From the NCBI RefSeq assembly GCF_900128885.1, contig NZ_FQTU01000002.1:1385-33384 (forward strand): a stretch of DNA of 32,000 nucleotides. The letters run 5' to 3'. The DNA comes from Alkalibacter saccharofermentans DSM 14828. Its GTDB lineage: Bacteria > Bacillota > Clostridia > Eubacteriales > Alkalibacteraceae. The position numbers were made by a program, and so were the translations under genes. Of the stretch, positions 1 through 22,436 are shown piece after piece. Positions within the stretch are counted from its first letter, which is position 1, and every line of letters starts with the position of its first letter. Under the pieces are notes generated by a model. That model had not been told where the DNA came from. It did not search any database and saw nothing but the letters and a program-made list of their open reading frames with translations.

Positions 1-3000
1 TCGTTTTTCCTTTCCCACTTTATAGTGATTTCCAAGTGGGTCAACTTGATATTTTTCTAAAGTTTTTAAAGTTTTTATACCTAAACTTTGTATTGTGTAT
101 GTATTATCATGATTAATAATTGTAATTACGCCACTATTAATTCCTGATTTAACATAATAAGCATGTATTTCTTTGCATATGTACTCTTTAGAGAGTGTTC
201 CCTTAATACTTATTGCAGATAGTTTCAATTCTTTTTTTCCTTCAATTCTAATCAAATCATTTGGGTATAATGAAAATATGAAATCTTTATCGTTCATTTC
301 TTTCCATTCCTTATAGGGTTTATGTGCAACTACCGCTTTACTAGGAAGTTCTTTTTTCATACGATCCGCAATATAAATCGGGATAAAATAGTATCCTTCA
401 CCTTCCACATGGAAAATGTCTATCCTTATCATGCTATCATTATATGCAACGCCTTTTCCATCATGCACATCGACTGTTAAAGATGCTTTTTCATAAACTT
501 TGACCTTCTTGACTACAGGTCCCTTTTCCCCATTTTTTGTAGGCTTATAGAATGGTTCTGAAAAAGCTTTCTTCCCATCATTATTATATTTCACCAATTG
601 TTCTTTTAATTCTTGGTACAGTTTTCGGTCACTGTTTGGATTGTAATAATTTTCTATCTCTCCATCTTTGTCTAGTTTCAATTTCTCCAATGGTCTTTTT
701 AGCAATATTAATCCTTCATCTTTTAGTTTTGGGCTAAAAATTGTCTCTTTGTGGGCAGCCCCTGTTATCTTTCTTTTTGGCATTCTTGATACAAATATCG
801 GTTTAATATTATCTTCTGTAAATTCTCCAATACTATTGAGAAATTTCATGGGATCATCCATCAACCTTATATCTAGTTCGTTTCGAAACCCTTCCCATGG
901 CATTGGAAATTTTTCTATAATTTCGCCTGTTTTTTTATCAACTACATGTTCATCTAGTTGAACATATCGTTTTTCTTTATAATCACAATGTCTTGACACT
1001 TTTTGTATCATCCCGTCAGATGTACACGCTACCACAAGTGCATCCACTGCATGATGAAGATCTCCATCTTCTCGAACTTTACTAATCCCCCAACGTTTTC
1101 TTAAATAACTTGTAACAGCTCCGTTTACAGCGGTTACTTTTTTCTTCTTGCCAGTATTATTTTCTGCAAACAGCAGGTAATCGTTTAAGTAATTGTACAT
1201 AAATCGAGAAACATGCTTCGTATCATTGAGATTTCTTTCCTTGAACCGCTTCCTGTCTTCTTCCGTGATATCTTCTTTAAGAAAATTCATTTTTTTATTT
1301 TTATCCCTAATGGTATTATTTACCCACACTTTAAACTTATCTGCCTTATCTCCTTTTAAGTAATGCAAAGGTAGCCTGTTTCCTTTTTGCCTGTTCTCAC
1401 TTGCTAAAACCACAACTTTATTGGCATAACTGTCATTGAACGAGATGCTGTATGGAATTATATGATCAATGTCCGCATAACCAACTTCAAATAGCCTATC
1501 TATTTGAATCTCTTTAAGTGAGTATGGGCATATGCCATCTTGCTGTTTCCAAAGCTTTAATTTCACAATATCTATTCCCGAGGGATATAGTACTCCTTGA
1601 TCACTTATTTCTTGCTTAATTCTTTCATTTTGAGCTTGATTTTCCTTCATCTCTTTTTCTATTCTATTTCTATCTGAGAAATCCTTCGCCATTTCTCTAG
1701 CCAACTCAATACCGATAAAAGTCGGACTTTCTCCATACTGTCTGATAATGCTATTAATTACTTTCCTAGTTTGAGCAATTGCCCTACGCACTACAGGGCT
1801 TGTAACTTCAGTAATTTCATCGATTTCTGCTGGCAGTAAAAGTTGCTTTTCTTTTCCGTCGTGGCCCTTAAAGTTATAATCTGCTTTTTCACAAGCTACA
1901 TTATATTTAAAGCCCTGTTCTAAAAATGGTATTATTTTATCTAAAGCTTTGGTGCTGAGATTTGCAAATTTGCTAAATCCTCCAACATGAAGCAGCAAAA
2001 CTTCTAGGTCCTTCCTGGATATGTTAAAATCATTGAGATAATCTGCTATCTTTTGATCTGTCTTGTAAACCGTAAAAGCATATCCAATCCCATTCAGTGC
2101 TTCAATACTATAATCGCATATACGGTTTTTTTCAATTTTATCCAGAGCCACTCTAACTTTATGGTAGTTTTTCAAGTAGTCAAATTTCGCGCTTTTTTCT
2201 ACATCGTTAATGGACTTGTTGCCATAATTTAGTGTTGAAAATAAAACTGATTCTGTGAACTTTAATTCTTTTCTGATTTTTGCGTACGTTAAAGCTGGAC
2301 TTTTAAAGGCCAACTCCTTAATAGCTCTTCTCTCTTCTCCAGTCAAAAATCTACTTTCTCCGTTTATGTTTACTCTGATATTGTTTATATTCTGTAATAA
2401 GTTGGCGTATTCAGCTGAAAATGCTGCTTTGGGAGCTCTCTTCTCTTTCTTTTCAAATCTGCACATACCAATCATCTTTTCAATCTGGTCCCCAGAATAA
2501 GGGCTTGGCAGTCCTGGACCATTATCAAATGACCGTTGTGTAAAAAGTATCTCAACGTACTTTGACTCAAACTCATCATTGAGTATTTCTGATCCATATT
2601 TTCTTTGACAATCAAAAATCATTTGTACTTCTTCCAAAACTAGATCTCTCCCTACCGTATGGGAATAATCATCGCTTTTGTTTCTTTTATGGTCCGCAAA
2701 TTTAGGATCTTTTAGAAGCATCTCACCAACAGTCCTATAGCCTTTTTCTAACATCAGTTTTTTATTTATTTCAACTGCTTTTAAAAGTTTACCCGATTCT
2801 TCCTCTGCTAGTTTTTCAGACTTTCTATTTGACTTAAACCCTCTGCGTTGAGCTAAGTGTATCAATAGTCGAGTGATTTCATCCTGATTAAGTAATCTAT
2901 CTAATGCTTCAACTCGTATCTCATATATATCTTTTAATTTTTTGTGACCAAACAAATTATTGAATTGGTCTTCAGTCAGTAAATCCTTGCTAAATATAAG

Positions 3001-3228
3001 TGCTCTAATTCTATCTAGTCGGTGTTTTTTCCTTCTAATTCGTCTTCTCGCACCCCTGGCTTCTCTTCGCGGCAACGCTAAAGATGCTCCATCTTTGGGG
3101 TTTTCAGCAGCATCAAATATTCTAACGCCCATATCAATAATTTTATAAGGTTCATCATTACTATCCAAATTCACTGTTGCCCATCCCACTGAAGTAATTC
3201 CAATATCCAATCCAATTTTATAATTCAT
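1..3228 (-). CDS. cas9: Cas9 endonuclease (compact, type II-C-like, about 1080 aa). The 3' end runs off the left window edge.
   Basis: Own translation of the reverse strand. ATG at 3228-3226 is preceded by GGGGTG (3240-3235), followed by 1076 sense codons to nt 1 with no stop, so it is absent from the closed-ORF track. Motifs: MNYKIGLDIGITSVGWA (RuvC-I, D8); Arg-rich bridge helix LPRREARGARRRIRRKKHRLDRIR; FIGIELAREM (RuvC-II, E508); DIDHIIPYSISFNDSYANKVVVLASENRQKGNRLP (HNH, H589 = nt 1464-1462, N612); DLHHAVDALVVA (RuvC-III, H726/D729). The C-terminal KYQVDPLGNHYKVGKEKR resembles the extreme C-terminus of NmeCas9, so only a few codons are probably missing. Confidence 0.95.
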   Translation of the reverse strand, partial: MNYKIGLDIGITSVGWATVNLDSNDEPYKIIDMGVRIFDAAENPKDGASLALPRREARGARRRIRRKKHRLDRIRALIFSKDLLTEDQFNNLFGHKKLKDIYEIRVEALDRLLNQDEITRLLIHLAQRRGFKSNRKSEKLAEEESGKLLKAVEINKKLMLEKGYRTVGEMLLKDPKFADHKRNKSDDYSHTVGRDLVLEEVQMIFDCQRKYGSEILNDEFESKYVEILFTQRSFDNGPGLPSPYSGDQIEKMIGMCRFEKKEKRAPKAAFSAEYANLLQNINNIRVNINGESRFLTGEERRAIKELAFKSPALTYAKIRKELKFTESVLFSTLNYGNKSINDVEKSAKFDYLKNYHKVRVALDKIEKNRICDYSIEALNGIGYAFTVYKTDQKIADYLNDFNISRKDLEVLLLHVGGFSKFANLSTKALDKIIPFLEQGFKYNVACEKADYNFKGHDGKEKQLLLPAEIDEITEVTSPVVRRAIAQTRKVINSIIRQYGESPTFIGIELAREMAKDFSDRNRIEKEMKENQAQNERIKQEISDQGVLYPSGIDIVKLKLWKQQDGICPYSLKEIQIDRLFEVGYADIDHIIPYSISFNDSYANKVVVLASENRQKGNRLPLHYLKGDKADKFKVWVNNTIRDKNKKMNFLKEDITEEDRKRFKERNLNDTKHVSRFMYNYLNDYLLFAENNTGKKKKVTAVNGAVTSYLRKRWGISKVREDGDLHHAVDALVVACTSDGMIQKVSRHCDYKEKRYVQLDEHVVDKKTGEIIEKFPMPWEGFRNELDIRLMDDPMKFLNSIGEFTEDNIKPIFVSRMPKRKITGAAHKETIFSPKLKDEGLILLKRPLEKLKLDKDGEIENYYNPNSDRKLYQELKEQLVKYNNDGKKAFSEPFYKPTKNGEKGPVVKKVKVYEKASLTVDVHDGKGVAYNDSMIRIDIFHVEGEGYYFIPIYIADRMKKELPSKAVVAHKPYKEWKEMNDKDFIFSLYPNDLIRIEGKKELKLSAISIKGTLSKEYICKEIHAYYVKSGINSGVITIINHDNTYTIQSLGIKTLKTLEKYQVDPLGNHYKVGKEKR

Positions 3229-3251
3229 TATGTTCACCCCTTTAATTAACA

Positions 3252-3280
3252 ATTATATACTTATATTTCCTTTTAATCAA
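3252..3280 (-). promoter_or_regulatory. Candidate sigma-A promoter of cas9
   Basis: On the minus strand: TTGATT (3280-3275), 17-nt spacer, TATAAT (3257-3252). It lies about 25 nt upstream of the cas9 RBS/ATG and immediately downstream of the tracrRNA terminator. Confidence 0.55.
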
Positions 3281-3284
3281 GTTT

Positions 3285-3322
3285 TTTGCATAAAGATAAC
3301 GCCTTGCATCATGCAAGGCGTT
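3285..3322 (-). terminator. Intrinsic terminator / 3' hairpin of the tracrRNA
   Basis: Perfect inverted repeat AACGCCTTGCA / TGCAAGGCGTT (3298-3322, 11-12 bp stem, 1-3 nt loop). On the minus strand it is followed by an interrupted U-tract, UAUCUUUAU. Confidence 0.6.
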
Positions 3323-3382
3323 AGAGCTTTTCGGTGTACTACCTTATTGTAGCAACCATATTAAGTTTTGGTATAATAGATT
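3287..3382 (-). ncRNA. tracrRNA: Candidate tracrRNA (about 96 nt), co-oriented with and upstream of cas9
   Basis: Minus-strand sequence: AAUCUAUUAUACCAAAACUUAAUAUGGUUGCUACAAUAAGGUAGUACACCGAAAAGCUCUAACGCCUUGCAUGAUGCAAGGCGUUAUCUUUAUGCA. It has a 36-37 nt anti-repeat ending GUUGCUACAAU, then an AAGG nexus, a GAAAAG..AACGC segment and a terminal GC-rich hairpin. This layout and the GUUGCUACAAUAAGG string match the NmeCas9 tracrRNA/sgRNA scaffold as I remember it. It has its own promoter and terminator. Both ends are predicted, not mapped. Confidence 0.75.
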
Positions 3383-3388
3383 AGTTAG

Positions 3389-3417
3389 ATGATACCACAT
3401 TTTTTCTTTCTTGTAAA
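3389..3417 (-). promoter_or_regulatory. Candidate promoter of the tracrRNA
   Basis: On the minus strand: TTTACA (3417-3412), 17-nt spacer, TGG-TATCAT (extended -10, 3394-3389). This predicts a start at A 3382/3381, exactly at the 5' edge of the anti-repeat. Confidence 0.55.
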
Positions 3418-3451
3418 CATTATTTAAACTTTTTTGAATTTAATTTACAGT

Positions 3452-4573
3452 CTACACCTCAAACGCTTTTGCCACATCTTTCAAACTTTTGATAATTTCT
3501 ATATGCTGTGGACAGCTCTTTTCACATTTTCCACATTCGATGCAATCAGAGGCTTTGCCAAACTTCTTAGTGTAATTTCCATAATAGACCTTTAAAATAT
3601 TAAACCCTTTGTCTTTAAATCGTTCCTTCGCATTGTACAGTGAAAAATAGTTTGGTATGGGGATGTTCATCGGGCAATCATCCACGCAATAATTACAAGC
3701 TGTACAAGGTACCGTTATCGATTCGTTGATTATCTTAACAGCTTTGTCGATAATATCGAGCTCTTCTTTGAAAAGAGGTTTAAATTCCTTCATATAGCCT
3801 GTATTATCCAACAGCTGTTCCATTGAAGACATTCCACTTAAAACGGTAATGACATTATCGAGACTGGCTGCATATCTTACTGCCCAGGATGCAACGCTCA
3901 TTTCCGAATCATGATTTTTGTATAGCTTTTCCACCTCTTCAGGAACCTGTGACAATATTCCACCTTTTACGGGCTCCATGATTATCACAGGTTTATTGTG
4001 CTTCATGGCGACCTCGTAGCATTTTCGAGACTGAATGCTTTCATTCTCCCAGTCAATATAATTGATCTGCAATTGTACGAAGTCCACTTCCGGGTTCTCG
4101 GTCAAAATTTCATCAAGCAAATCTGCTCTGTCGTGAAAGGAAAAACCTATTTTCTTTGCTTTGCCTTCCGCTTTTTTATTTTGAACAAATGAAAAAGCGT
4201 CAAATTTCTTAGCTAATTCATAATGACCTGCGCCTAGGTTATGTATCATATAATAGTCAAAATAATCTAGACCTGTCTTATCAAGCTGCTCATTAAATAC
4301 CTTCTCCAATTCTTCTTGCTCTTTAATAAGCATAATCGGGAGCTTATCTGCAACTGTATAAGCGTCTCTCGGATGGCGCTTTACCAACGACTCTCTCAAT
4401 GCATTCTCACTTACAAAGTTATGGTACATGTAAGCAGTATCGAAGTAATTAAAACCTCTTTCCAAGAAAGTATCTACCATTTTATTTAATTGTTCATAGT
4501 CGATGCTTGTTTGATCATCCTTATCTTTGATGGGTAACCTCATCCATCCAAATCCCAGTTTTTTTGTATCCAT
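3452..4573 (-). CDS. Aldo/keto reductase fused to a C-terminal 2x[4Fe-4S] ferredoxin domain (COG1453-like oxidoreductase)
   Basis: 373-aa ORF with RBS GAGGAG. The N-terminal AKR barrel has [13 protein letters not shown]. The C-terminus has [12 protein letters not shown] and [12 protein letters not shown] cluster motifs. Confidence 0.8.
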
Positions 4574-4613
4574 ATATATCGTCTCCTCTAGTTTTTTCTC
4601 AATCCATATATAT

Positions 4614-4644
4614 ACCTTACCACCTAGAGTACACTCTAAGTCAA
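4614..4644 (-). promoter_or_regulatory. MerR-type promoter/operator in front of the AKR-FeS gene
   Basis: On the minus strand: TTGACT (4644-4639), 19-nt spacer, TAAGGT (4619-4614). The overlong spacer contains the dyad TAGAGT-nn-ACTCTA (4625-4638). A 19-bp spacer with a central palindrome is the MerR-family operator architecture. Confidence 0.45.
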
Positions 4645-4983
4645 GATTTTTTTACAACTTGTTTTAAATATTACGTCATCTCATTCTTGATATGAGCGGT
4701 TTAATCTCTATGACAATTACCTAAGTTGATAAAAAACAAAATCACCTCTGATGACTGATATCTTACATGAGAATTGGTTTGATGCCACCAGCGCCAAAAA
4801 CTTAAAGTAGAGTGTTCAATTACGATCAAGATTCTCATAACAGATTTAATAGTCAAAGGAAAAGTCCCGCTAGACTTAGTTGCAGGATTTTCTATCTGGA
4901 TATTTGCAAAGACAAAATAAATGCCTTGGTAGATTGATGCAGATCTGTATGGCAATCTGAGTTTCTTATTTGCCCCTAGAGCA

Positions 4984-7428
4984 TTAAATGTTCTCTTTTT
5001 TAATGTTTTCCAACTGCTTTTTCAATTTTTTAATTTCACTTCTATTATTAAACCACGAGGATATTAAGTGAAACGCTCCTATAAAAAATTTCCCGTTCAC
5101 CATCTCTAAAACATCATCAATCATAGCCGCATCTACTTGCCCCACGGTCATTTTAGAAATCGCCCTAAAAGGCATATTATAAATATAGAGTATGTTTATA
5201 TTTGGCTCTCCCTTTTTTTCTGAACGATTTTTGATTCCGTCAAGAATTTTAAAAACAAGCCGACCTATCAATCCTTTAGCGTAATAAAGCTGAGAAATGG
5301 TGTCTTCACTTGTTAGCCTCTTAGTAGTATCCCAACTGGATTTTGGAATCGGGCGATTCAGCAATGATTCAAATTCTTCATCAGAAACGTTTCTCACATC
5401 TCCATTGTAGTAGGCTGATAACTTCACCACATCATAGGGACTATCAGCATTTGTTCCCACTAAATGCAAAGTTTCATTCAATGCTATATCCTCAGAAGAT
5501 GCACCAACCATAATCCGATATTCACCGGTTTCTAACTCAAATTTATGCGTTTTGATATTGTAATATCTGAAAGCTTTGTCATCAAGGACTATCTCTAATT
5601 CCTTTTTTTCTCCAGGTTCTAGATAAACTTTGCTGAACTCTTTAAGTTCTTTTGATGCCCTAAATATTTTACTGTCTTTTAACCCTACATATAGCTGCGC
5701 AATTTCTTCTCCTGGGATTTTCCCAACATTTTTTATTTTAAAGGCAACTTTATTATTTGAGCATACAAGGTCAGAATACTCAAACTTCGTATAGCTTAGT
5801 CCATATCCAAAAGGAAATCTAACTGGAATATCCTTTTTTTGATAGTATCTGTAGCCAACGTATATTCCTTCCCTGTATTCAGCAGTAAGCTCATTTCCCG
5901 GGAAATAATTATATGTAGGGGTATCCTCATGTTTAATAGGATACGTCTCGCTAAGTTTACCACTGGGGCAAATCCTGCCTGTAACGATATTGATAATTGC
6001 GCTTGCTCCCGCCTGTCCTGCCAAGCAGGAAAACAATAAAGACTTCGCATTGTCTAACCAAGGCATTTCAACGACAGAACCGGCGCTGAGGACAACTACA
6101 ATATTTTCATTAATATATCTTAACTCCGCCAACAGCTGAGTCTGATTTTCTCTAATCTTCATGTGTTTGCGATCTAAACCTTCCGATTCGTAGCTCTCGT
6201 CAAGCCCTAGATACAATAAGACAACATCTGCATTCCTAGCCAAGCTCAATGCCTCTTCTTTCATTCTTTCATTTGCCTTCCCGTATCGTTCGAATCCTTG
6301 GGCATAACCTATTAAATCCAGATGGCTATTTTCAATCATCTCCAAAGTGTCATCCATCTTAGTCGGGGTAACTTTGCTGGAGCCTGCCCCCTGATATCTG
6401 GGTATTACTGCAAAGTCTCCAATCACAGCTACTTTAATACCAGCTTTTAAGGGCAGCAACTTATCATTATTCTTTAATAGTACTATGGATCTTTCTGCTG
6501 CTATTCTTGCCATTTCATGGTGTGCATCCACGTCAAATTCATTTTCTCGTTTTTTCTGTTCTTTCTTGATTTTAAATACTGCACTGAGAAGCTCGTCAAC
6601 CCGCTCATCAAGTACTTCCATTGCGAGATTGCCATTCTTGACTGCTGCCACCACCTCTAAATCACTGACTCCCCCATTCGATGGCATCTCTAGATGGCTT
6701 CCTGCTTTAACAGCCTCTACATGGTCTTTACTTCCACCCCAATCTGTTACCACAAATCCTTCAAAGCCCCACTTATCAACCAATAGATCTTTCAACAAAT
6801 AAGAGCTCTCATTTGCATGAACGCCGTTAATCTTGTTGTATGCAGACATTATGGACATGGGTCTACCTTCTTTTACTGCTATTTCAAACCCTGTAAGATA
6901 TATCTCGTGTAAGGTTCTTTCATCCAAGACAGAATCGCTTGTCAGGCGCAGAAGCTCTTGGTTATTTGCTGCAAAGTGCTTGGGACAGGCTGCTATGCCT
7001 TTTGATTGAACTCCTTTTATTAACGCCGCTGCAAGCTTGCCCGATAGATAGGGATCCTCACTGAAGTATTCAAAATTTCTTCCACACAATGGGCTTCTTT
7101 TTATGTTAAGCCCTGGCCCAAGCCAAACGTCAACGTCATGTGATTTTGCTTCTTCACCCAATAGTTCCCCTACTTTTTCCACCAAGTTTTTGTCCCAACT
7201 GTTGGCTAATGTAGCTGCTGTGGGAAACGATGTAGAGGGATGCCCTGCATTTAGACCCAAATGGTCTGCGCTACCAATCTGCTTTCTGATTCCATGAGGA
7301 CCATCAGCCATTCTTAACGAAGGTATATTCAGTCTGTCTATAGATTTAGACATCCAAAAATCTTTTCCTGAAAGTAGTGAGGCTTTTTCTTCTAAAGTCA
7401 TATTATCTATTAAATTTTTGTATTTCAT
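4984..7428 (-). CDS. Glycoside hydrolase family 3 beta-glucosidase (BglX-like)
   Basis: Motifs: MTLEEKASLLSG at the N-terminus, GLNIKRSPLCGRNFEYFSEDP, the nucleophile region GFVVTDWGG, and a Fn3-like C-terminal domain. The track ORF starts at a TTG (7443). I place the start at ATG 7428-7426, 5 nt after GGAGG (7438-7434). Confidence 0.85.
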   Translation of the reverse strand: MKYKNLIDNMTLEEKASLLSGKDFWMSKSIDRLNIPSLRMADGPHGIRKQIGSADHLGLNAGHPSTSFPTAATLANSWDKNLVEKVGELLGEEAKSHDVDVWLGPGLNIKRSPLCGRNFEYFSEDPYLSGKLAAALIKGVQSKGIAACPKHFAANNQELLRLTSDSVLDERTLHEIYLTGFEIAVKEGRPMSIMSAYNKINGVHANESSYLLKDLLVDKWGFEGFVVTDWGGSKDHVEAVKAGSHLEMPSNGGVSDLEVVAAVKNGNLAMEVLDERVDELLSAVFKIKKEQKKRENEFDVDAHHEMARIAAERSIVLLKNNDKLLPLKAGIKVAVIGDFAVIPRYQGAGSSKVTPTKMDDTLEMIENSHLDLIGYAQGFERYGKANERMKEEALSLARNADVVLLYLGLDESYESEGLDRKHMKIRENQTQLLAELRYINENIVVVLSAGSVVEMPWLDNAKSLLFSCLAGQAGASAIINIVTGRICPSGKLSETYPIKHEDTPTYNYFPGNELTAEYREGIYVGYRYYQKKDIPVRFPFGYGLSYTKFEYSDLVCSNNKVAFKIKNVGKIPGEEIAQLYVGLKDSKIFRASKELKEFSKVYLEPGEKKELEIVLDDKAFRYYNIKTHKFELETGEYRIMVGASSEDIALNETLHLVGTNADSPYDVVKLSAYYNGDVRNVSDEEFESLLNRPIPKSSWDTTKRLTSEDTISQLYYAKGLIGRLVFKILDGIKNRSEKKGEPNINILYIYNMPFRAISKMTVGQVDAAMIDDVLEMVNGKFFIGAFHLISSWFNNRSEIKKLKKQLENIKKENI

Positions 7429-7681
7429 TACAACCTCCGCCAACTGTTATCTTGCACTGGTTTTATTATTTATATCCTTATAGAATTAATCTTACCAGTA
7501 TAAAAGAGCTTTCTGCAGATCAACCACAAAAAGCTTCTAAATTAAGTGCAATGTAATCAATTAGTTTTATATCTTACGAAGCAACGGTATCAATGTTTAA
7601 GCCGATAACTGTTATTTCCCATGATTAATTATGATTAAGCATATGTCCATTTGCTTTTATTTTATTTCACTCAAGTTTTTT

Positions 7682-8902
7682 CTATAGTCCTCTGCGCCTT
7701 GGCTTTAGCACCTTTGGCTTATTTCCCCATGTGTCAACATCCAAATAACCGTATTTAGCCCTTAAGTGGGTATTTACCTGAAGCTCACATCCGGTTTTAG
7801 TCTCACATTTTTTACATTCAAAACACTGCATGGATTCAAAGCCCCGGGTAAAAGGACATACTGCGATGCAGTTTGCACAACTTGCTCCATTTGTCTGCCA
7901 AAGTCTCAGGCACTTTTCTGCTGATATGTACCATTTTTTTATTCCAGAGTTGTTATTATCACATATCCCATCGTAGCTTTGCTCACCAAAGCTAATAGCA
8001 CTGGACGGACAATGCTCTGCACATAAATGGCAGTTATCACAAAATTCCGGTATCCCAAAGTCTATTGCATGGTCATTTTCAAGGGGCATATCTGTAAGTA
8101 CCTTCATCAGCCTGACATTCGGCCCGAACTCAGGTGTTATAAGGAGTCCCAGTCTACCCAACTGACCTAGCCCTGCCTCAACAGCCAAGGGTATGCTAAG
8201 TGCAGTATCATTCATGCAAGGGATTGCCTGGTATCCCAAACCCCTAATATACTCCGCAAGGGATACCGCCGTGATACCCATTCTGGAATAACCAAGAGAT
8301 GTAGCGGTGCTGGCATCTACCAAAGGTGATGTTTCTATCATTTCGTCATCCATGGCAACGGCCATTACTATGGCTTTGTTTACCTTCCTAGGTATTAAGA
8401 AGGCATCTTCCGTCTCTTGGGGGGAGCCTTCATCTACAATCTCAAAGGACTTGAATAGATCTTTTGAATAGACCCACTTGGGATCAAGACTGGCAATTCC
8501 CACTAGATCAGCTCCATATAAAACTGCTGCTTTTTTCACCATATTTGATAATTCATTGCTTGGCATATTGACGGGATGATTGGCAAGCATATCCGGCACA
8601 AACAGGGGACTCCATTTTAAGAATTGAAAATTCGGAAATCCGTACTCTCCTATAAGCAAGTTGAGTGCATTTGCCCCTAAGTCAAGAGCATTGTCTTCTT
8701 GCCTTCTTCCTTCTTCGCCGCTCATCATTCTTCTGACCATGTTTTCCATCATTTTGTTCATCCAGTGATTGTAACCGATTTCTCCCGCATCCTGAAAACT
8801 CACGGTCACAAATGCCTGCCTGGTAACAGGAAATCTTTCGTACACACCTTCTTTTATATCGATTGGACTTTCGCTTTTTTTCATCTCTTTTCTTGGTATC
8901 AT
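7682..8902 (-). CDS. Reductive-dehalogenase-like (RdhA/QueG superfamily) corrinoid/Fe-S protein. It has no Tat signal.
   Basis: 406 aa with RBS GGGGTGA. Motifs: AGLGQLGRLGLLITPEFGPNVRL, CDNCHLCAEHCP (CxxCxxCxxxCP) and CANCIAVCPF (CxxCxxxCP), as in RdhA and epoxyqueuosine reductase. The N-terminus MIPRKEMKKSESPIDIK has no RRxFLK twin-arginine motif. There is an extra C-terminal CFECKKCETKTGC motif. Confidence 0.65.
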   Translation of the reverse strand: MIPRKEMKKSESPIDIKEGVYERFPVTRQAFVTVSFQDAGEIGYNHWMNKMMENMVRRMMSGEEGRRQEDNALDLGANALNLLIGEYGFPNFQFLKWSPLFVPDMLANHPVNMPSNELSNMVKKAAVLYGADLVGIASLDPKWVYSKDLFKSFEIVDEGSPQETEDAFLIPRKVNKAIVMAVAMDDEMIETSPLVDASTATSLGYSRMGITAVSLAEYIRGLGYQAIPCMNDTALSIPLAVEAGLGQLGRLGLLITPEFGPNVRLMKVLTDMPLENDHAIDFGIPEFCDNCHLCAEHCPSSAISFGEQSYDGICDNNNSGIKKWYISAEKCLRLWQTNGASCANCIAVCPFTRGFESMQCFECKKCETKTGCELQVNTHLRAKYGYLDVDTWGNKPKVLKPRRRGL

Positions 8903-9082
8903 TTTTTCACCCCATATCCATGATTATCATTCTCGTTTAAGTATATCAAAGTTTTAATAAGATTACTTTATTATGCATATAATTATTGGCTTAACTTTAT
9001 TTTTATCAAATTAAATATATATGTTTGCTAAATATTATGATAGAATATATAACTGAGATATTCAATTGAAAGGCGTGAAAGC

Positions 9083-9766
9083 ATGAAAAAGATATCCGCT
9101 GCAGATAAGATTTATCAGGCTGCCAAAAGTTTGTTTTACGAGTCAGGTTATTACGGAACTACTACACGGGATATTACTACAAAATCTTCAACAAATCTGG
9201 GTTTGATTAAATATTACTTTGACAGTAAAAAAGTACTTGCTTACAAAATGATAAGCGAAATTTTTGATGAACTTTTGGGTTCTTTAAACAAATATATCAA
9301 AGCAGATGAAGATCCCTTGTTCTACGCCATGGTGTATACCCATGTATTCATGAGCATGCTCTTCAGTGACGAAAAGGTGGAATCGTTTATAGTAGAGTCT
9401 TTTTCAGATGAGATAATGGAAGAAATTGAGGATGCCTTCTACAGATCTTATCAGTACGACCTCAATTTAAAGATCTTGGAAACTCACGCCTTTTCCCCTG
9501 AGTACAATACGCATCAAACGATACAACTAAACCTATTTTCCTTTCACAATGCAATTAAATCCATCGGAAGGATGCGCCAAAGGGGCCGTATGGATATTAA
9601 CAACGATCAATTCAGGCTTTATATTTTTAAATTGATACTTTTCGGACTGGGCATAAACTTGGATGACGAACAAGAGAGAATGAAGGGTTCTTTTGATCTT
9701 AGCAACAAAATAATAAATGACAACGACCGTCTGAAGATTCCTAGTAAGATTTTTCTAGATGCTTAA
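9083..9766 (+). CDS. TetR/AcrR-family transcriptional regulator
   Basis: 227 aa. The N-terminal HTH region IYQAAKSLFYESGYYGTTTRDITTKSSTNLGLIKYYFDSKK is typical TetR_N. The gene is divergent from the RdhA-like gene. Confidence 0.8.
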   Translation: MKKISAADKIYQAAKSLFYESGYYGTTTRDITTKSSTNLGLIKYYFDSKKVLAYKMISEIFDELLGSLNKYIKADEDPLFYAMVYTHVFMSMLFSDEKVESFIVESFSDEIMEEIEDAFYRSYQYDLNLKILETHAFSPEYNTHQTIQLNLFSFHNAIKSIGRMRQRGRMDINNDQFRLYIFKLILFGLGINLDDEQERMKGSFDLSNKIINDNDRLKIPSKIFLDA

Positions 9767-9774
9767 AATACAAA

Positions 9775-9805
9775 CCCCTGCCAAAATATCTGGCAGGGGT
9801 TTTTT
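9775..9805. terminator. Bidirectional intrinsic terminator between tetR and the large oxidoreductase gene
   Basis: CCCCTGCCA (9775-9783) / TGGCAGGGG (9791-9799), followed by TTTTTT on the plus strand. On the minus strand the same hairpin is followed by TTTGTATTTT. Confidence 0.8.
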
Positions 9806-9808
9806 GAC

Positions 9809-12800
9809 TTAAAGTGTCTCTGTAATTTTTCCAAACTCTTTTTCCACAAAATCTGTAGAAATTCTCGGTTCGAACATCTTGCCTTCCTCTACAACTAAAA
9901 GGTTGGCTTTTTTATCTTCAGTAGCAAATCCATCCATATATAGCACATCAGATTCGCCAACCGGCCATATTGAACCGCTTTTTGCAAGGTATGCTCCTTT
10001 ATAAACAGGTATAGCCTTGGATAGCTCTTCCATTATGTCTTCAACTGATGCAAAGGGATTTTGTTCTCCCAACACAACCGTAAGGTTGGTCATTATCTCC
10101 CAATTTGACTTTCCGGACAGCGCCGTTATTGCAGGGGCTATCTTTTGAATCCTTCTTTCAGAGTTAGTAAAAGTTCCCTCTGATTCAGCCCAGCTGACAG
10201 CAGGAATTACCACATCTGCCTTTTGTGCAGTTGGTGTTAGGTACAGGTCTTGAACCATCAAGAATTCTAGATTATCAGTCTTTTTGCCTTCAACATCCTC
10301 TCCAAAAATCATAAGTCCTTTCAAGGTTTTATCTTCTATGGCTTTTTCAATTACCTTGTTATCTTTATTGACTCCCATATCCGAAAGACCTTGGCTGTTG
10401 TTTTTAGGCTTTAGCTGTATTATTCCCCTTCTGGGAAGTCCTATCTTTCCAGCCACTACGGCAATATCCGCAATTAGCCTTGCAGCTCCAGCCGTTACGT
10501 AATTTTGATCAAATACGATAATGGCTTTTTGAGCATCTTTGTATTCTTTTGCCATTGCTTTTGCATCACTAGAAACCTCTACTGCTGCAAGTGAGCTTTT
10601 CAGTTCTTCAAATCCTTCGGCATTTTTCGGTTCGCATCCCATATCTATAAGAGCTTTGAGCATCTCTTTAAGCAGGGTCAAGTCCTCTGTTTCAATCTTT
10701 CTGTTAGCCCATTCGTCAGCCTGTGTTTCTATGTTGTTCACGACAGTAAGCTTGGCACCGTTTCTGAGACCTTCCCTTACCTTTAAGGCGGCAATGGTAT
10801 GGTCCTTCATTATGTCTCCACCTACCAATAGAATCATATTGGTGGATTTTAACTCTTCAAAGGTATTTGTTGAAGCGTCCATGCCAAGAACTTCTTCAAT
10901 CCCTCCGTAATTTCTGTTAAATGATGTAATATTATCAGTAGACAGGTAATCCCTTGCCAGCTTCTTCGCCAGGTATATCTCTTCATTTGTATATCTGTCA
11001 GATACAGCTACCGCTACAGCATCCTTGCCATAAAGCATCCTTAGGCTTTGCATCTTTTTAGCTGCAGTCCTTATGGCTTCATCCCAGCTAACTTCTACCA
11101 GTTTGCCCTCTTTTTTAACCATTGGCTTAGTAAGTCTGCTCTTTTGGTTTGATGCATCGTAACCGAATCTTCCTTTGACGCATAGGAGGCCTTTATCGAC
11201 TGTACTGTCTTTATCCGGGAGCACTCTATATATCTTATCTCCCTTAGCCTGTACGCTTACGTTGCAGCCAACTGAGCAGAAGGAGCATACTGACTTTGTT
11301 TCTACCTGTTCAACAGGTACCGGTTTTGTCATTTGAAGTCTTTCCTGCAATGCTCCTACCGGGCAAACGCTTATGCACTGCCCACATGAGATGCAGTTCG
11401 TTTCAGCAAGGGGCAGATTAAGTGCCGGTTTGACTGCTGTATCAAATCCTCTGTCAACAAGGCCTAAAGCTCCATTATCCATTACTTCGTCACATACTCT
11501 CACGCAAAGTCCGCAAAGTATGCACTTGTCGGAGTTTCTGACGATAAATGGGTGGTTGTCATCATGTTCACGGGAGTGAACTTCTCCCTCGTATATTTCC
11601 GGACTTACGTCATAACTATTAGAATAATCTATCAACTTGCATTCGAATACGTCTCCGCAGCCACACTCAAGACATCTTTTTGCATCTTCCATTGCCTGCT
11701 CAGGAGTATATCCTGCAACAACCTCTTCGAAGTTTTTCTTCCTCTCTTCAGCAGACAGGTGCCCCATGTGAGGTCTCTTAGCCTTTTCCCTATCTTTGAA
11801 AGTCTCTTCTGTTATATCTTCTCTCTTAACCCAGTATGGCTCAGTGAATGAAATCTCTTGACCTTTTAAATATTCATCAATTACGATTGCGGCCTTCTTT
11901 GCATCGCCAATGGCTTCTATCGCTATTCCTGCGCCATCATTGATTGCATCTCCTCCCGCAAAAACCCCCTTCATGCTTGTTGTAAAAGTGGTCTCATCTG
12001 TAACTATTGTATTCCAATTGGTCGCCTTAAGGTTTTCAAACCCAGCAAGGTCCACACCCTGGCCTATGGCGCCTATTACAAGGTCTACGTCAATTGTTTC
12101 TTCTTCGCCCACAATCGGTACAGGTCTTCTTCTTCCGCTTGCATCAGGCTCACCAAGCTGCATTTTCTGCAATCTGACCTTCTTTGCCTTTCCATCCTCC
12201 TCAATTATCTCAACAGGCGCAACAAGGTATTTAAATATTACACCCTCTTCTTCCGCTTCGATAATTTCAATATCTTCTGCAGGCATTTCATCCCTGGTTC
12301 TTCTATATAATATGTAAACCTCTTTTGCTCCAAGCCTTACTGCTGTTCTGCAGGCATCCATTGCCGTGTTTCCCCCACCGACTACTGCTACCTTGCTGCC
12401 AATCTCAATCGGTTCATTTAAAGTCACTTTTCTTAAAAAATCTATCCCGCCAATTACTCCAGGAAGTTCTTCTCCAGGACATCTCATTTTTGAGCTTGTC
12501 CAGGCTCCTACTGCCACATATACTGCATCATACTGATTTTGAAGATATTCAAAGTCGATATCTCGTCCTATCTTCATGTTGTTCAGCATTTTTGCACCCA
12601 TCTTTTCGATGATTGCAACCTCTTGATCTACTATGTCTTTAGGTAGCCTGTATTGGGGTATCCCGTATCTAAGCATCCCTCCCATCTGTGGCATGGCATC
12701 GTAAATTGTAACATCGTGACCCATCCCGAGAAGGTAATATGCGGCGCTTAGTCCTCCTGGACCTCCACCAATTATACCGACTTTCTTGCCAGTCGATGGA

Positions 12801-13366
12801 GAAATCTCCGGTATGAATAGATCCTTGTCTTCAAGGTCTATGTCTGCTACAAATCTCTTAAGCCAAGCTATAGATATAGGCTCTTCTATAAGCTGTCTTC
12901 TACATGCTGTTTCGCATGGATGAGGACATACCCTTCCTATTGCCGCAGGAAGAGGCAGCTGTTCCTTGATAAGTTCCAAGGCTTCTCTAAACTGACCGTT
13001 CGCGATTAGTCCAACGTATCCCTGACAATCCGTATTTCCCGGGCATGCCAAGGTACATGGCGCCTTGCAGTCTCCTGTATGATCTGAAAGCAAAAGCTCC
13101 AAAGCGGTCTTTCTGCTTTCCTTTGTCCTATTGGTATTTGTTTTTATTATCATTCCATCTGACGCTTTTGTTGCGCAAGATCTTAAAAGCTTAGGCACTC
13201 CTTCAACTTCCACGACACACAATCCGCAAGAACCGTAAATCTCAACTCTCTCGTCATAACAAAGAGTCGGAATCTCAATGCCATTTTCCCTGGCGATCTG
13301 AAGAATCGTCTGATCGCTGGTGCCCTGGACTTCTATTCCATTTATATTCATTCGTATCAAAGACAT
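9809..13366 (-). CDS. Giant fusion subunit, in order: [2Fe-2S] ferredoxin, GltD-like FAD/NAD(P)H module, NuoG-type Fe-S clusters, degenerate formate-dehydrogenase-like molybdopterin domain
   Basis: 1185 aa with RBS AGGAGTG. N-terminal 2Fe-2S region: CYDERVEIYGSCGLCVV. GltD-like region: CPHPCETACRR, GKKVGIIGGGPGGLSAAYYL, VAVVGGGNTAMD. NuoG His-cluster: HPFIVRNSDKCILCGLCVRVCDE, followed by CISCGQCISVCP. Molybdopterin Fe4S4 motif: CSFCSVGCNVSV. The position aligned with the FDH [8 protein letters not shown] active site reads SFNRNYGG (nt 10901-10924). Confidence 0.75.
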   Translation of the reverse strand: MSLIRMNINGIEVQGTSDQTILQIARENGIEIPTLCYDERVEIYGSCGLCVVEVEGVPKLLRSCATKASDGMIIKTNTNRTKESRKTALELLLSDHTGDCKAPCTLACPGNTDCQGYVGLIANGQFREALELIKEQLPLPAAIGRVCPHPCETACRRQLIEEPISIAWLKRFVADIDLEDKDLFIPEISPSTGKKVGIIGGGPGGLSAAYYLLGMGHDVTIYDAMPQMGGMLRYGIPQYRLPKDIVDQEVAIIEKMGAKMLNNMKIGRDIDFEYLQNQYDAVYVAVGAWTSSKMRCPGEELPGVIGGIDFLRKVTLNEPIEIGSKVAVVGGGNTAMDACRTAVRLGAKEVYILYRRTRDEMPAEDIEIIEAEEEGVIFKYLVAPVEIIEEDGKAKKVRLQKMQLGEPDASGRRRPVPIVGEEETIDVDLVIGAIGQGVDLAGFENLKATNWNTIVTDETTFTTSMKGVFAGGDAINDGAGIAIEAIGDAKKAAIVIDEYLKGQEISFTEPYWVKREDITEETFKDREKAKRPHMGHLSAEERKKNFEEVVAGYTPEQAMEDAKRCLECGCGDVFECKLIDYSNSYDVSPEIYEGEVHSREHDDNHPFIVRNSDKCILCGLCVRVCDEVMDNGALGLVDRGFDTAVKPALNLPLAETNCISCGQCISVCPVGALQERLQMTKPVPVEQVETKSVCSFCSVGCNVSVQAKGDKIYRVLPDKDSTVDKGLLCVKGRFGYDASNQKSRLTKPMVKKEGKLVEVSWDEAIRTAAKKMQSLRMLYGKDAVAVAVSDRYTNEEIYLAKKLARDYLSTDNITSFNRNYGGIEEVLGMDASTNTFEELKSTNMILLVGGDIMKDHTIAALKVREGLRNGAKLTVVNNIETQADEWANRKIETEDLTLLKEMLKALIDMGCEPKNAEGFEELKSSLAAVEVSSDAKAMAKEYKDAQKAIIVFDQNYVTAGAARLIADIAVVAGKIGLPRRGIIQLKPKNNSQGLSDMGVNKDNKVIEKAIEDKTLKGLMIFGEDVEGKKTDNLEFLMVQDLYLTPTAQKADVVIPAVSWAESEGTFTNSERRIQKIAPAITALSGKSNWEIMTNLTVVLGEQNPFASVEDIMEELSKAIPVYKGAYLAKSGSIWPVGESDVLYMDGFATEDKKANLLVVEEGKMFEPRISTDFVEKEFGKITETL

Positions 13367-20211: not shown

Positions 20212-22137
20212 TTATCGAACCTCCGTACCATCAGAGATGTCTCTGTCTACGGTGATGAGGTTCAAATCCTTTTTGTCTGCCGCTGCTAGTATCATCCCCT
20301 GAGATTCTATTCCGCGAATCTTGGTTTTTTTAAGATTGGTTATAACTACCACCCTTTTGCCTATCATATCTTCAGCAGAATAAAATTGTGCGATTCCTGA
20401 GACGATTTGTCTTCTCTCTTCTCCAATTTTCACCTGCAACACCAAGAGCCTGTCTGCATCCGGATGCTTATCACACTGAATGACTTCTGCGACTTTAAGC
20501 TTAACCTTGGCAAAGTCATCGATACTTATTGTGTCGTCTTCTTTCTTGCCTTTTTTCTGTTCGCTTTTTTTAATCTGGGACTTTGTTTCTTCCTTTTTTT
20601 CTTCAATTGCTTCTACCCTAGGGAAAAGGTTGTCTCCTTTTGACATTTTTTCCCCGAAGCCATATGCCCCATATTCACTAGCGCTTTCCCAAGTCAGTGC
20701 TTCTTCAGGGATATTGATTTGAGCCTGCATCTTTTTTGCTGTGGTAGGCATGAAAGGCTCAATCAGAACCGAAACTACTCTGAGAGTCTCAGCAAGATTA
20801 AACATTACCCCTGCCAGTCTTTCTTTCATTTCAGAATCTTTTCCCAAAATCCAAGGTGTAGTCTCATCTATGTACTTGTTAGCCCTGGAAACCAGTTTCC
20901 AAATAATCGCCAAAGCATTGCTAAGCTCCATTTTTTCCATATGGCTTGCTACATCTTTTGGAGTACGGCTGATCATTTCAAGCAAGCTTTGGTCTATGTC
21001 AGCAACCTGCTTCTCTGATGGTATTATCCCTCCAAAATACTTTTCAACCATTGCAACAGTCCTGCTCAACAGGTTCCCCAAGTCGTTTGCCAAATCCGAA
21101 TTGATTCTTGATACCAACGCATCTTCATTGTAGACCCCGTCTGCTCCAAAGCTCATTTCTCTCAATACGAAATATCTTAGTGAATCTACTCCATATTTTT
21201 GAGACAGCTCCACCGGATCTATGACGTTTCCTTTTGACTTTGACATCTTCCCTCCCTTTAAGAGTATCCATCCGTGTCCAAAAACCTGCTTGGGAAGAGG
21301 TAGATCTAGTGCCATAAGCATTATTGGCCAGTAGATCGTATGGAATCGCAAGATGTCTTTTCCAATCAAATGAACGTCTGCCGGCCAGAATTTTTCCATG
21401 AGCTGAGGCCTGTCGTTTAAGTACCCCAGAGCAGTTATATAGTTGGACAGTGCATCTATCCAAACATATACCACATGTCCCGGGTCGAAATCTACAGGTA
21501 CGCCCCAGTCAAAAGTCGTCCTGGACACGCAAAGATCCTGAAGCCCCGGCTTCAAGAAATTATTTATCATCTCATTTTTTCTGGATTCAGGTTGAATAAA
21601 GTGAGGGTTTTGTTCTATATGCTCTATCAATCTGTCCGCATATTTTGACATCTTGAAAAAATATGCTTCTTCTCTTTCTTGCTTGACTTCTCTTCCACAA
21701 TCAGGACACTTCTCATCCTCTAACTGTGTTTCAGTCCAGAAAGCCTCACATGGGGTGCAGTACCAGCCTTCATAATGAGACTTGTATATATCCCCTTTAT
21801 CGTATAGTTTTTTAAATATCTTTCTTACCGACTCTTCGTGATAAGGGTCGGTAGTCCTTATAAAGTGATCATAATCGATATCCATAAGCTCCCACAGTGA
21901 TTTAATTCCTTTCACTATTTCGTCTACGTATTCTTTAGGGGTCACTCCTTCTTCCTTTGCCTTTTCCTCAATCTTTTGTCCATGTTCGTCCGTACCGGTT
22001 AGAAAGAACACATCATATCCTGTCTTTTTTTTGTACCTTGCCATAGCATCCGCGGCAACAGTTGTATATGTATGTCCAATATGAAGCTTGCCGCTTGGAT
22101 AATAAATCGGTGTTGTAATATAATAACTTGGTTTCAT
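20212..22137 (-). CDS. metG: Methionyl-tRNA synthetase with a C-terminal tRNA-binding (Trbp111/EMAP-like) domain
   Basis: 641 aa with a HIGH motif (KLHIGHTY), a KMSKS motif (GKMSKSKGN) and a Zn knuckle CPDCG. RBS GAGGAGGA. Confidence 0.95.
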   Translation of the reverse strand: MKPSYYITTPIYYPSGKLHIGHTYTTVAADAMARYKKKTGYDVFFLTGTDEHGQKIEEKAKEEGVTPKEYVDEIVKGIKSLWELMDIDYDHFIRTTDPYHEESVRKIFKKLYDKGDIYKSHYEGWYCTPCEAFWTETQLEDEKCPDCGREVKQEREEAYFFKMSKYADRLIEHIEQNPHFIQPESRKNEMINNFLKPGLQDLCVSRTTFDWGVPVDFDPGHVVYVWIDALSNYITALGYLNDRPQLMEKFWPADVHLIGKDILRFHTIYWPIMLMALDLPLPKQVFGHGWILLKGGKMSKSKGNVIDPVELSQKYGVDSLRYFVLREMSFGADGVYNEDALVSRINSDLANDLGNLLSRTVAMVEKYFGGIIPSEKQVADIDQSLLEMISRTPKDVASHMEKMELSNALAIIWKLVSRANKYIDETTPWILGKDSEMKERLAGVMFNLAETLRVVSVLIEPFMPTTAKKMQAQINIPEEALTWESASEYGAYGFGEKMSKGDNLFPRVEAIEEKKEETKSQIKKSEQKKGKKEDDTISIDDFAKVKLKVAEVIQCDKHPDADRLLVLQVKIGEERRQIVSGIAQFYSAEDMIGKRVVVITNLKKTKIRGIESQGMILAAADKKDLNLITVDRDISDGTEVR

Positions 22138-22149
22138 CTTTATCCTCCT

Positions 22150-22436
22150 CGTTCATTTGTTCTTTCCCAACAAAAAAACTCCCATCCCAAAGGACGAAAG
22201 TCAACTTACGTGTTACCACCTTTTTTTATGCAGACTTATCAGACTGCACCTCATCGTGTATTTGCATACATCTCACTTTAACGCGTCACGCGTATCGAAC
22301 TACTCAGATTTCATCCGATCGATTCAAAGACCATCTTCCACCTGTTTTCAAAATCGATTCTCACCATTCTCGACTCTCTGTATAATTCCACAAGGCGTAC
22401 TCTTCTTATCATTATCTTTTCGTATTTTTTTGTTCA
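22150..22436 (-). promoter_or_regulatory. T-box riboswitch leader (Met specifier) of metG
   Basis: Minus strand: stem I elements AGAGAGTCGAGAATGGTGAGA; a specifier-loop candidate GGAUGAAA with AUG at 22314-22312, followed by A and an AGTA motif; the T-box sequence AAAGGTGGTAACACG (22223-22209); and a terminator ACTTTCGTCC-TTTG-GGATGGGAGT plus TTTTTTT (22201-22172). Confidence 0.85.

Follow-up and report, generated by a model that had tools for sequence, protein, structure and literature searches.

The window analysed here, a 32,000-nt stretch of the Alkalibacter saccharofermentans DSM 14828 genome, begins inside a cas9 gene read from the minus strand. On reverse-complement translation, an ATG at 3228-3226 opens a frame that runs through 1076 codons without a stop to nt 1; these are codons 1-1076 of a 1080-codon coding sequence (3228-1, minus strand), whose last four residues (MPLK) and stop lie beyond nt 1. 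The assignment draws on the frame itself, the TIGR01865 profile, the RefSeq protein WP_084116828.1, and an independent assembly described below. A ribosome-binding site, AAAGGGGTG, can be read at 3235-3243 (minus strand), its last base 6 nt 5' of the ATG, and a promoter-like site (TTGATT, 17 nt, TATAAT) is recognized by consensus match at 3252-3280 on the same strand. Further upstream, still on the minus strand, lies a tracrRNA candidate of about 95 nt (3290-3384), preceded by a promoter-like site of its own at 3389-3417.

The length of the cas9 frame sets it apart from its surroundings. The remaining five frames of 1-3228 carry between 47 and 135 stops each, no stop-free run exceeded 118 codons in 200 shuffles of the same segment, and at its base composition 1076 sense codons in a row would arise by chance with a probability of about 1e-41. 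The gene is nevertheless missing from the program-made list of open reading frames, which has no minus-strand entry left of 3452, because the lister omits frames that run off the source; the sequence-only reading that first drew attention to the gene had blamed its open end, correctly, and the start codon and stop-free frame it described were reproduced on re-translation. The extension past nt 1 that it had called for is available from a Logan assembly (run SRR4096541, locus L009), which equals window nt 713-1 exactly and then continues ATG CCA TTA AAA TAA. The cas9 stop therefore lies 13-15 nt past window nt 1 and the protein has 1080 aa, matching the length of the RefSeq entry. A separate 6-kb Logan contig, holding the neighboring aldo/keto reductase, ends within cas9. 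The gene is under purifying selection: compared with three environmental contigs that share one cas9 allele (97.9% nucleotide identity), its dN/dS is 0.156, a value that covers selection along the compared lineages and says nothing of present function in DSM 14828.

Membership in the Cas9 family is clear from profile searches, which the sequence-only reading had proposed as a check. The protein scores 821.4 bits against the cas_Csn1 equivalog TIGR01865 (cut-off 100), with aa 3-1067 covering positions 1-1070 of the 1070-position model, and Pfam HNH_4, RuvC_III, Cas9_RuvC, and Cas9_a all exceed threshold (Cas9_a with 30.0 bits, cut-off 26.9). Full-length alignments to TIGR01865 and to solved Cas9s contain no frame-breaking gaps, and at least 3536 relatives at E <= 1e-50 were found among 8000 candidates examined.

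All Cas9 signature motifs occur in canonical order, each at the residue where it had been placed from the letters alone. A split RuvC domain supplies the catalytic Asp, Glu, His, and Asp: RuvC-I is IGLDIGITSVGWA (aa 5-17; 3178-3216, minus strand), with catalytic D8 at nt 3205-3207; RuvC-II is IGIELARE (aa 505-512; 1693-1716, minus strand), with E508; and RuvC-III is DLHHAVDALV (aa 723-732; 1033-1062, minus strand), with H726 and D729, in the region matched by Pfam RuvC_III and Cas9_RuvC. Between RuvC-II and RuvC-III sits the HNH nuclease domain (aa 567-620; 1369-1530, minus strand; Pfam HNH_4, 77.6 bits), with its catalytic His and Asn: DIDHIIPYS (aa 586-594) contains D588 and H589, and NKVVVLASENRQKGNRLP (aa 603-620) contains N603 and N612. 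An Arg-rich bridge helix, RREARGARRRIRRKKHRLDRIR (aa 54-75; 3004-3069, minus strand), aligned to PRRLARSARRRLRRRKHRLERIR of ThermoCas9, accompanies an alpha-helical recognition lobe. The eight residues D8, E508, H726, D729, D588, H589, N603, and N612 are unchanged in 44 of 44 relatives, ThermoCas9 among them. The catalytically dead AtCas9 mutant is D8A/H617A/N640A (bioRxiv 10.64898/2026.01.30.702744), and D8, H589, and N612 of the Alkalibacter protein align to these three alanines, bearing out the catalytic roles assigned to them earlier. By these residues, the A. saccharofermentans Cas9 is predicted to be an active nuclease.

The C-terminal (WED/PAM-interacting) region, aa 884 onward (1-579, minus strand), matches ThermoCas9 residues 877-1064 with E 1e-53 and 48.7% identity over the domain. 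ThermoCas9 reads its PAM with N961, D1017, S1019, N1020, and R1035 (PMC13216068); the equivalents here are H969, G1029, N1031, S1032, and Q1047, so that none of the five is conserved. Gln1047 thus replaces the ThermoCas9 Arg reading G(-5), and Gly1029 the Asp reading C5 (contacts from PMC13216068). The sequence-only reading had held the region to be unmappable to a known specificity and the PAM unreadable from sequence: the region is in fact homologous to the ThermoCas9/GeoCas9 domain, while the specificity indeed does not transfer, since with none of the five PAM-reading residues kept, neither homology transfer of a PAM nor the assumption of an N4C-type PAM is valid.

Variation at these positions extends to close relatives. 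In the Cas9 of Alkalibacter mobilis, three of the five contact-equivalent positions differ (N, T, and K versus H, S, and Q here), and even the environmental allele, at 97% identity, has other residues at positions 1031 and 1032 (K1031 and G1032), within a C-terminal segment whose divergence from that allele is several-fold higher. Close type II-C orthologues have been described as exchanging their PAM-interacting domains, and the pattern here is similar. Whether the DSM 14828 enzyme reads a PAM unlike the N4C type of ThermoCas9, GeoCas9, and AtCas9 is, judged from these substitutions, an evenly balanced question; if it does, position 5 of its PAM would be predicted to be other than C, and it may represent a compact enzyme with a new targeting range, from the non-thermophilic Clostridia genus Alkalibacter.

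The tracrRNA candidate is supported by its fold, terminator, and conservation. It comprises an anti-repeat (about 3381-3346), an AAGG linker, a small hairpin, a terminator hairpin at 3323-3297, and a U-tract, and folds at -28.8 kcal/mol (z = -5.3). It is kept in contigs L001-L003 and in the A. mobilis locus, with seven pairs preserved through two-sided changes. Its promoter-like site (TTTACA, 17 nt, TG-extended TATCAT) matches consensus at 10 of 12 positions and is conserved in L001 and L003. In A. mobilis, the duplex of anti-repeat and CRISPR repeat has an energy of -43.3 kcal/mol, compared with -11.6 +/- 2.9 for shuffled repeats; the anti-repeat in the window pairs with that foreign A. mobilis repeat at -29.7, compared with -9.9 +/- 2.7. 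No Rfam family fits the tracrRNA region, the best score (ROSE_2, 21 bits; gathering score 65) being noise.

Beyond the window, the L009 assembly places the start of cas1 12 nt past the cas9 stop, followed by the start of cas2, and the Cas1 it encodes is exactly that of DSM 14828. Cas1 is of the type II kind (TIGR03639, cas1_NMENI, 275 bits; cut-off 120), and the locus has the cas9-cas1-cas2 operon of a type II-C system, in which a mobile-element end breaks cas2. DSM 14828 Cas2 is 56 aa long, and of the 96 positions in the cas2 model it matches only 3-43. Translating a mobile-element terminus yields exactly the last 14 residues and the stop of this protein; the terminus adjoins an IstB/IS21 gene in L011, and its first 43 nt adjoin an IS256-family transposase gene in L010. 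The DSM 14828 assembly ends exactly 30 nt into the terminus, where a repeat present in several copies would be expected to break it. The short Cas2 was considered as a contig-end artefact, and this was rejected: the NCBI protein ends in a stop, and the mobile-element terminus encodes exactly the same tail. Because cas2 is interrupted in this way, the acquisition of new spacers has probably been lost in DSM 14828, and decay of the locus may have begun. No CRISPR array lies within the 32,000-nt window. Contig L012, the only match when a degenerate anti-repeat pattern was used to look for a CRISPR repeat, has neither cas genes nor an array and was set aside as chance.

The cas9 module looks recently transferred: cas9 dS is 0.068, versus 1.2-1.9 in the flanking genes, which points to recent arrival, and in long contigs from close relatives the same chromosomal slot is occupied by a type I-C system or lacks CRISPR-Cas. 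The recent arrival of the module in a variable slot, the higher divergence of the C-terminal domain, and the insertion-element damage to cas2 illustrate the known behavior of defense loci and do not challenge it.

Taken together, the evidence makes it very probable that the minus strand of 1-3228 carries cas9 from a type II-C locus, encoding a 1080-aa RNA-guided endonuclease with complete RuvC and HNH sites. In the mechanism envisioned, a tracrRNA of about 95 nt (3384-3290) would be transcribed independently, just upstream of cas9, and its anti-repeat would pair with crRNA repeats from an array downstream of cas1-cas2; the array of the nearest named relative, A. mobilis, is transcribed antisense to cas9. 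Once loaded with the RNA duplex, Cas9 would use its C-terminal domain to find a PAM on the 3' side of the protospacer and would then unwind the DNA, after which HNH would cleave the target strand and RuvC the other. The open frame, family membership, conserved catalytic residues, purifying selection, tracrRNA anatomy, and cas9-cas1-cas2 order are seen in the data; nuclease activity, guide pairing in DSM 14828, the PAM, and any present function of the system there are inferred.

Other explanations differ widely in plausibility. A chance open frame, or a pseudogene with hidden damage, could be entertained as long as the window ends before the stop and completeness is not provable from the window alone, but this has a negligible claim: it is already refuted by the shuffles and the minute probability of such a frame (longest shuffled run 118 codons; about 1e-41), by full-length alignments free of frame-breaking gaps, by the dN/dS of 0.156, and by the stop found 12 nt past the window in an exactly matching independent assembly that agrees with the 1080-aa RefSeq protein. 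Only slightly less improbable is that the protein does not cut both strands, and instead nicks DNA or binds it under RNA guidance without nuclease activity, for instance as a regulator. Nothing specific favors it, and against it stand the four RuvC and four HNH residues invariant in all 44 relatives, the same catalytic residues being carried by the biochemically active ThermoCas9.

Of more substance, although we regard it as doubtful, is the idea that cas9 is intact within a recently acquired locus that is decaying, with the array possibly lost or separated, leaving Cas9 guideless and idle, or at most limited to a fixed set of old spacers. The 56-aa Cas2 ending in a mobile-element terminus fits this account, as do the low cas9 dS relative to its neighbors and the presence of type I-C or no CRISPR-Cas in the corresponding slot of close relatives; however, cas9 itself is intact, together with its promoter and ribosome-binding site, and so are the tracrRNA and cas1, and an array may lie beyond the insertion element. 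Loss of cas2 blocks spacer acquisition and leaves interference in place, so that the damage seen would halt the former and not the latter.

On the main reading, a type II-C cas9, the enzyme is already known: the 1076 residues of the window are identical, 1076 of 1076, to WP_084116828.1, named Cas9 by NCBI (Alkalibacter saccharofermentans DSM 14828), and RefSeq and UniProt both hold the exact protein, correctly named. The earlier suggestion of an uncharacterised orthologue thus stands biochemically (a literature search found no publication on the DSM 14828 enzyme) and fails as to annotation. This is an ordinary type II-C enzyme from a very large, well-understood family, and its discovery value is small. 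Its practical value is modest and lies in being a compact (1080 aa), biochemically uncharacterised type II-C Cas9, with 46.5% identity to the nearest characterised enzyme, a clearly delimited tracrRNA, and PAM-reading positions that depart from those of characterised relatives; it could widen the PAM range of AAV-sized Cas9s.

The closest named relative is the Cas9 of Alkalibacter mobilis (P0002; GCA_015594845.1, L004), with 69% identity, likewise 1080 aa, and the terminus ...RMPLK; a literature search found no published characterisation of it. The two loci share a layout, with tracrRNA upstream of cas9, then cas1 and cas2, but the A. mobilis Cas2 is intact at 106 aa, unlike that of DSM 14828, and is followed directly by an array of 38 exact 36-nt repeats. 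The A. mobilis locus has no csn2 or cas4; the absence of csn2 after cas2 distinguishes it from type II-A. Its chromosomal neighborhood differs from that of the DSM 14828 locus.

Among solved structures, the nearest are compact type II-C enzymes, in keeping with the class proposed by the sequence-only reading. ThermoCas9 of Geobacillus thermodenitrificans T12 (PDB 9AR4) is the best match (E 1e-276, 46.5% identity overall), followed by GeoCas9 of G. stearothermophilus (PDB 8UZA, 8JTJ; E about 1e-270), with alignments spanning residues 1 to 1076. Sizes are close (1082 and 1087 aa, respectively, versus 1080 here), domain order is shared, and the catalytic residues are identical, ThermoCas9 D8 and H582 aligning with D8 and H589; the hosts differ, being thermophilic Geobacillus for those enzymes and Alkalibacter here. 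AtCas9 (PDB 21DZ) also aligns over the full length. Nme1Cas9 of Neisseria meningitidis (PDB 6JDQ, 6KC7 group) is a full-length homologue of the same size class (E about 1e-197 to 1e-198) but scores lower than the Geobacillus enzymes do (665 versus 924 bits) and is thus the more distant, with a much weaker match in the C-terminal domain (E 5e-22 versus 1e-53). Its HNH positions, H588 and N611, nearly equal H589 and N612, and the tracrRNA core GTTGCTACAATAAGG here and the start of the A. mobilis repeat, GTTGTAGCTCCCTT, resemble the corresponding Nme sequences. The N. meningitidis tracrRNA gene is situated downstream of cas9, unlike the upstream placement found here. Likeness to SaCas9 (275 bits) and to the type II-A SpCas9 extends to nuclease chemistry and the order of RuvC and HNH motifs, the SpCas9 match being weak (78 bits, residues 249-746) and falling mostly in the nuclease lobe.

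The minus-strand frame at window positions 1-3228 encodes an ordinary type II-C Cas9 that is already so annotated in public databases. Translation of the reverse complement bore out in full what the sequence-only reading had described, namely an ATG at 3228-3226 followed by 1076 codons without a stop, and its residue numbers for D8, E508, H589, N612, H726, and D729. Each of the other five frames of the same interval is broken by 47-135 stops, 200 shuffles gave no stop-free run longer than 118 codons, and 1076 consecutive sense codons would have a probability of ~1e-41 at this base composition. On the minus strand, 6 nt separate the ATG from an upstream Shine-Dalgarno-like AAAGGGGTG. As that reading had supposed of an open-ended frame, cas9 is unlisted (the minus-strand list is empty left of 3452) because the ORF lister omits ORFs that run off the source. 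Extension past nt 1, a check it had proposed, recovered the stop: a Logan assembly contig (L009, run SRR4096541) that carries the exact Cas1 of DSM 14828 is identical to window nt 713-1 and then reads ATG CCA TTA AAA TAA, so the window's cas9 lacks only MPLK and its stop codon.

In the search against Cas9 profiles, TIGR01865, the NCBIfam equivalog model for Cas9, aligned end to end with a score of 821 bits (cut-off, 100), and Pfam HNH_4, RuvC_III, Cas9_RuvC, and Cas9_a matched as well. The assignment of D8, H589, and N612 as catalytic positions also stands: the deposited AtCas9 chain is a dead mutant, D8A/H617A/N640A (bioRxiv 10.64898/2026.01.30.702744), whose three alanines align exactly with these residues, and D8, E508, D588, H589, N603, N612, H726, and D729 are invariant in 44/44 sequences of an alignment comprising the window Cas9, ThermoCas9, and 42 database relatives. 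We consider it very probable that this is a standard type II-C Cas9 in both identity and catalytic competence. The suggestion of an uncharacterised orthologue holds in part: our literature search found no paper characterising the Cas9 of DSM 14828 or any Alkalibacter, and the protein is absent from the supplements of a 79-orthologue catalogue (PMC7606464), but the frame is identical at 1076/1076 residues to WP_084116828.1 / SHE38695.1 / UniRef100_A0A1M4T2N7 (1080 aa), which NCBI names 'type II CRISPR RNA-guided endonuclease Cas9 [Alkalibacter saccharofermentans]'. The window also codes for seven complete proteins identical to DSM 14828 proteins. Its cas9 is a known gene with a correct annotation, but biochemically unstudied.

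A self-contained candidate tracrRNA unit precedes cas9 on the cas9 strand, with a promoter-like site (TTTACA, 17 nt, TG-extended TATCAT; 3417-3389, minus), a transcript of ~95 nt, and at its end a GC-rich hairpin of 12 bp plus a U-tract (3323-3297, minus). The predicted fold has an energy of -28.8 kcal/mol (z = -5.3 vs shuffles). The whole intergenic region is ~96% identical in three environmental contigs that share one cas9 allele (L001-L003), and the tracrRNA of the Alkalibacter mobilis type II-C locus is recognisably conserved, with 7 base pairs kept via changes on both sides. A search of the region against Rfam returned no matching family.

The 5' part of the candidate transcript contains a putative anti-repeat, ...TATACCAAAACTTAATATGGTTGCTACAAT and then AAGG (about 3381-3346, minus); neither a CRISPR array nor a second anti-repeat copy was found within the window. 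The A. mobilis locus reads cas9-cas1-cas2 and then 38 exact 36-nt repeats with a 66-nt period. Its repeat GTTGTAGCTCCCTTATGAATTTTGGTATATTAGACG, read antisense to cas9, has a pairing energy of -43.3 kcal/mol with the anti-repeat of that locus (shuffled repeats, -11.6 +/- 2.9; same-sense orientation, -7.0), and the window anti-repeat pairs with this foreign repeat at -29.7 kcal/mol (shuffles, -9.9 +/- 2.7). A perfect extended -10 box, TGGTATAAT, is present in the complement of the window anti-repeat, and the equivalent position of the A. mobilis repeat is occupied by TGGTATATT; CRISPR repeats of this system may therefore carry their own promoters, as those of N. meningitidis type II-C arrays reportedly do. 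In operation, the tracrRNA would pair with the crRNA repeats, the duplex would be bound by Cas9, the PAM would be read by the C-terminal domain, and HNH and RuvC would cut the two DNA strands. That the system operates in DSM 14828 is much less certain than the identity of its enzyme.

The adaptation genes bear on this question. In L009, cas1 starts 12 nt after the cas9 stop and encodes a 299-aa protein identical to WP_073269368.1, with a TIGR03639 (cas1_NMENI) score of 275 bits; the cas2 start overlaps the cas1 end. Whereas Cas2 of A. mobilis has 106 aa, the DSM 14828 Cas2 on record at NCBI has 56, and its match to the 96-position cas2 model is confined to positions 3-43. A mobile-element terminus (TGTGTTTGGCAATAGAAAAGTACAACTTTTGGCAATCAAAAAT...; L009 1633-1801, outside the window past nt 1) breaks the gene after about codon 42: after ...YGRVC the protein turns into LAIEKYNFWQSKIQ and a stop, a tail that is the exact translation of TTGGCAATAGAAAAGTACAACTTTTGGCAATCAAAAATACAATAG, so that the element itself encodes the final 14 residues. 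TTGGCAATAGAAAAGTACAACTTTTGGCAATCAAAAATACAATAG is also present in a Eubacteriaceae MAG (L011, 4360-4408), directly adjoining an IstB/IS21 gene (E 1.5e-60). From TGTGTTTGG on, the initial 43 nt of the shared terminus recur in an Anaerovoracaceae MAG (L010, about 935-977), where the gene beside them encodes an IS256-family transposase (E 3e-88). All three junctions turn identical exactly at TGTGTTTGG, and L009 stops exactly 30 nt into the terminus, as a 31-mer assembler would at a multi-copy repeat (we take k = 31 for the Logan assembler). We conclude from these junctions that an insertion-element end interrupts cas2. The element is probably IS21-like, since the DSM 14828 junction follows the L011 version; because one 43-nt terminus has different neighbours in the two MAGs, either the IS21-type or the IS256-type neighbour is probably a nested insertion. 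With cas2 interrupted, spacer acquisition has probably been lost in DSM 14828; interference need not suffer from loss of cas2.

The L001-L003 cas9 allele (the 97% allele) has 97.9% nucleotide identity to the window's, with 42 synonymous and 27 non-synonymous differences; at a dN/dS of 0.156, cas9 has evolved under purifying selection. We compared window 1-3451 (the tracrRNA-cas9 module) and window 3452-13366 (three flanking genes) against L001: dS of cas9 is 0.068, and in the same genome pair it is 1.53 for the aldo/keto reductase, 1.93 for the dehalogenase-like, and 1.21 for the formate-dehydrogenase-like gene. Such low cas9 dS beside its flanks is a signature of a recent exchange of the module between otherwise well-diverged lineages, by horizontal transfer or allelic replacement. 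The type II-C locus of DSM 14828 sits downstream of the aldo/keto reductase gene (window 3452-4573, minus). In one close relative (L006, 3671-12247) this slot holds a complete type I-C set (cas3-cas5-cas8c-cas7-cas4-cas1-cas2) along with a WYL regulator, and in two others (L007/L008, 11502-13096) only a GDSL lipase and then an ECF sigma factor, without CRISPR-Cas there; the slot is a variable, defence-island-like position among close relatives. A DSM 14828 locus recently acquired and already decaying is a tentative reading that we rate as somewhat doubtful; the low cas9 dS and the broken cas2 speak for it, the intact cas9 frame against it.

Additional features of the window merit record. A ~3.1-kb segment (4587-7678) between the dehalogenase-like and aldo/keto reductase genes of DSM 14828 is missing at that position in L001 and L002 (DNA comparison) and in L006 and L007 (gene order). 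Its 819-aa ORF (4984-7443, minus) is a glycoside hydrolase of family 3 in which both GH3 domains, N- and C-terminal, are accompanied by an Fn3-like domain; an 84-aa ORF (4701-4955, minus) has no family match. NCBI names the neighbouring 406-aa protein (7682-8902, minus) 'reductive dehalogenase'. Its match to Pfam Dehalogenase is limited to the C-terminal half of the model (38.7 bits), a 4Fe-4S dicluster domain is also recognised, and a fragment in its cluster carries the JGI name epoxyqueuosine reductase QueG; its functional label looks uncertain. A T-box leader (Rfam RF00230, 109 bits; 22187-22421, minus) lies directly upstream of methionine--tRNA ligase (20212-22137, minus).

Divergence of cas9 from the 97% allele is concentrated in the last ~225 codons (window 1-680, aa about 850-1076), at 13-14 differences per 300 nt vs 0-8 elsewhere (P = 0.002 for amino-acid and P = 3e-6 for synonymous changes), which suggests a mosaic or exchanged C-terminal, PAM-interacting domain. 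The sequence-only reading could assign the C-terminal region to none of the known specificities, yet its homology to the PAM-interacting domain of ThermoCas9/GeoCas9 is clear (E 1e-53, 48.7% identity); the view that the PAM is not readable nevertheless holds. ThermoCas9 contacts its PAM through Arg1035 (G-5), Asp1017 and Ser1019 (C5), and Asn961 and Asn1020 (A7:T-7) (PMC13216068). The alignment, gap-free in this stretch and with YY and HDN as anchors at its two ends, places Gln1047 opposite Arg1035, Gly1029 opposite Asp1017, Asn1031 opposite Ser1019, His969 opposite Asn961, and Ser1032 opposite Asn1020. With 0/5 of these residues conserved, the sequence does not reveal the PAM; two of the positions, 1031 and 1032, also belong to the 27 amino-acid differences from the 97% allele (N1031K, S1032G). 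As a weak prediction, the PAM may not be of the N4C type. Practical interest lies in a compact, uncharacterised orthologue whose PAM is not readable from its sequence, and anecdotal interest in the recent transfer, the variable defence slot, and the insertion element in cas2.

Among solved structures (enzyme names taken from papers citing the entries), the best match is ThermoCas9 (9AR4; full length, E 1e-276, 46.5% overall identity), with AtCas9 (21DZ) and GeoCas9 (8JTJ, 8UZA) also among the best and aligned full length. The Nme1Cas9 group, including 6KC7, aligns full length at E about 1e-197, and much lower scores were obtained for SaCas9 (275 bits) and SpCas9 (78 bits). The sequence-only reading of the frame as a compact II-C-like Cas9 was correct in both observation and interpretation.
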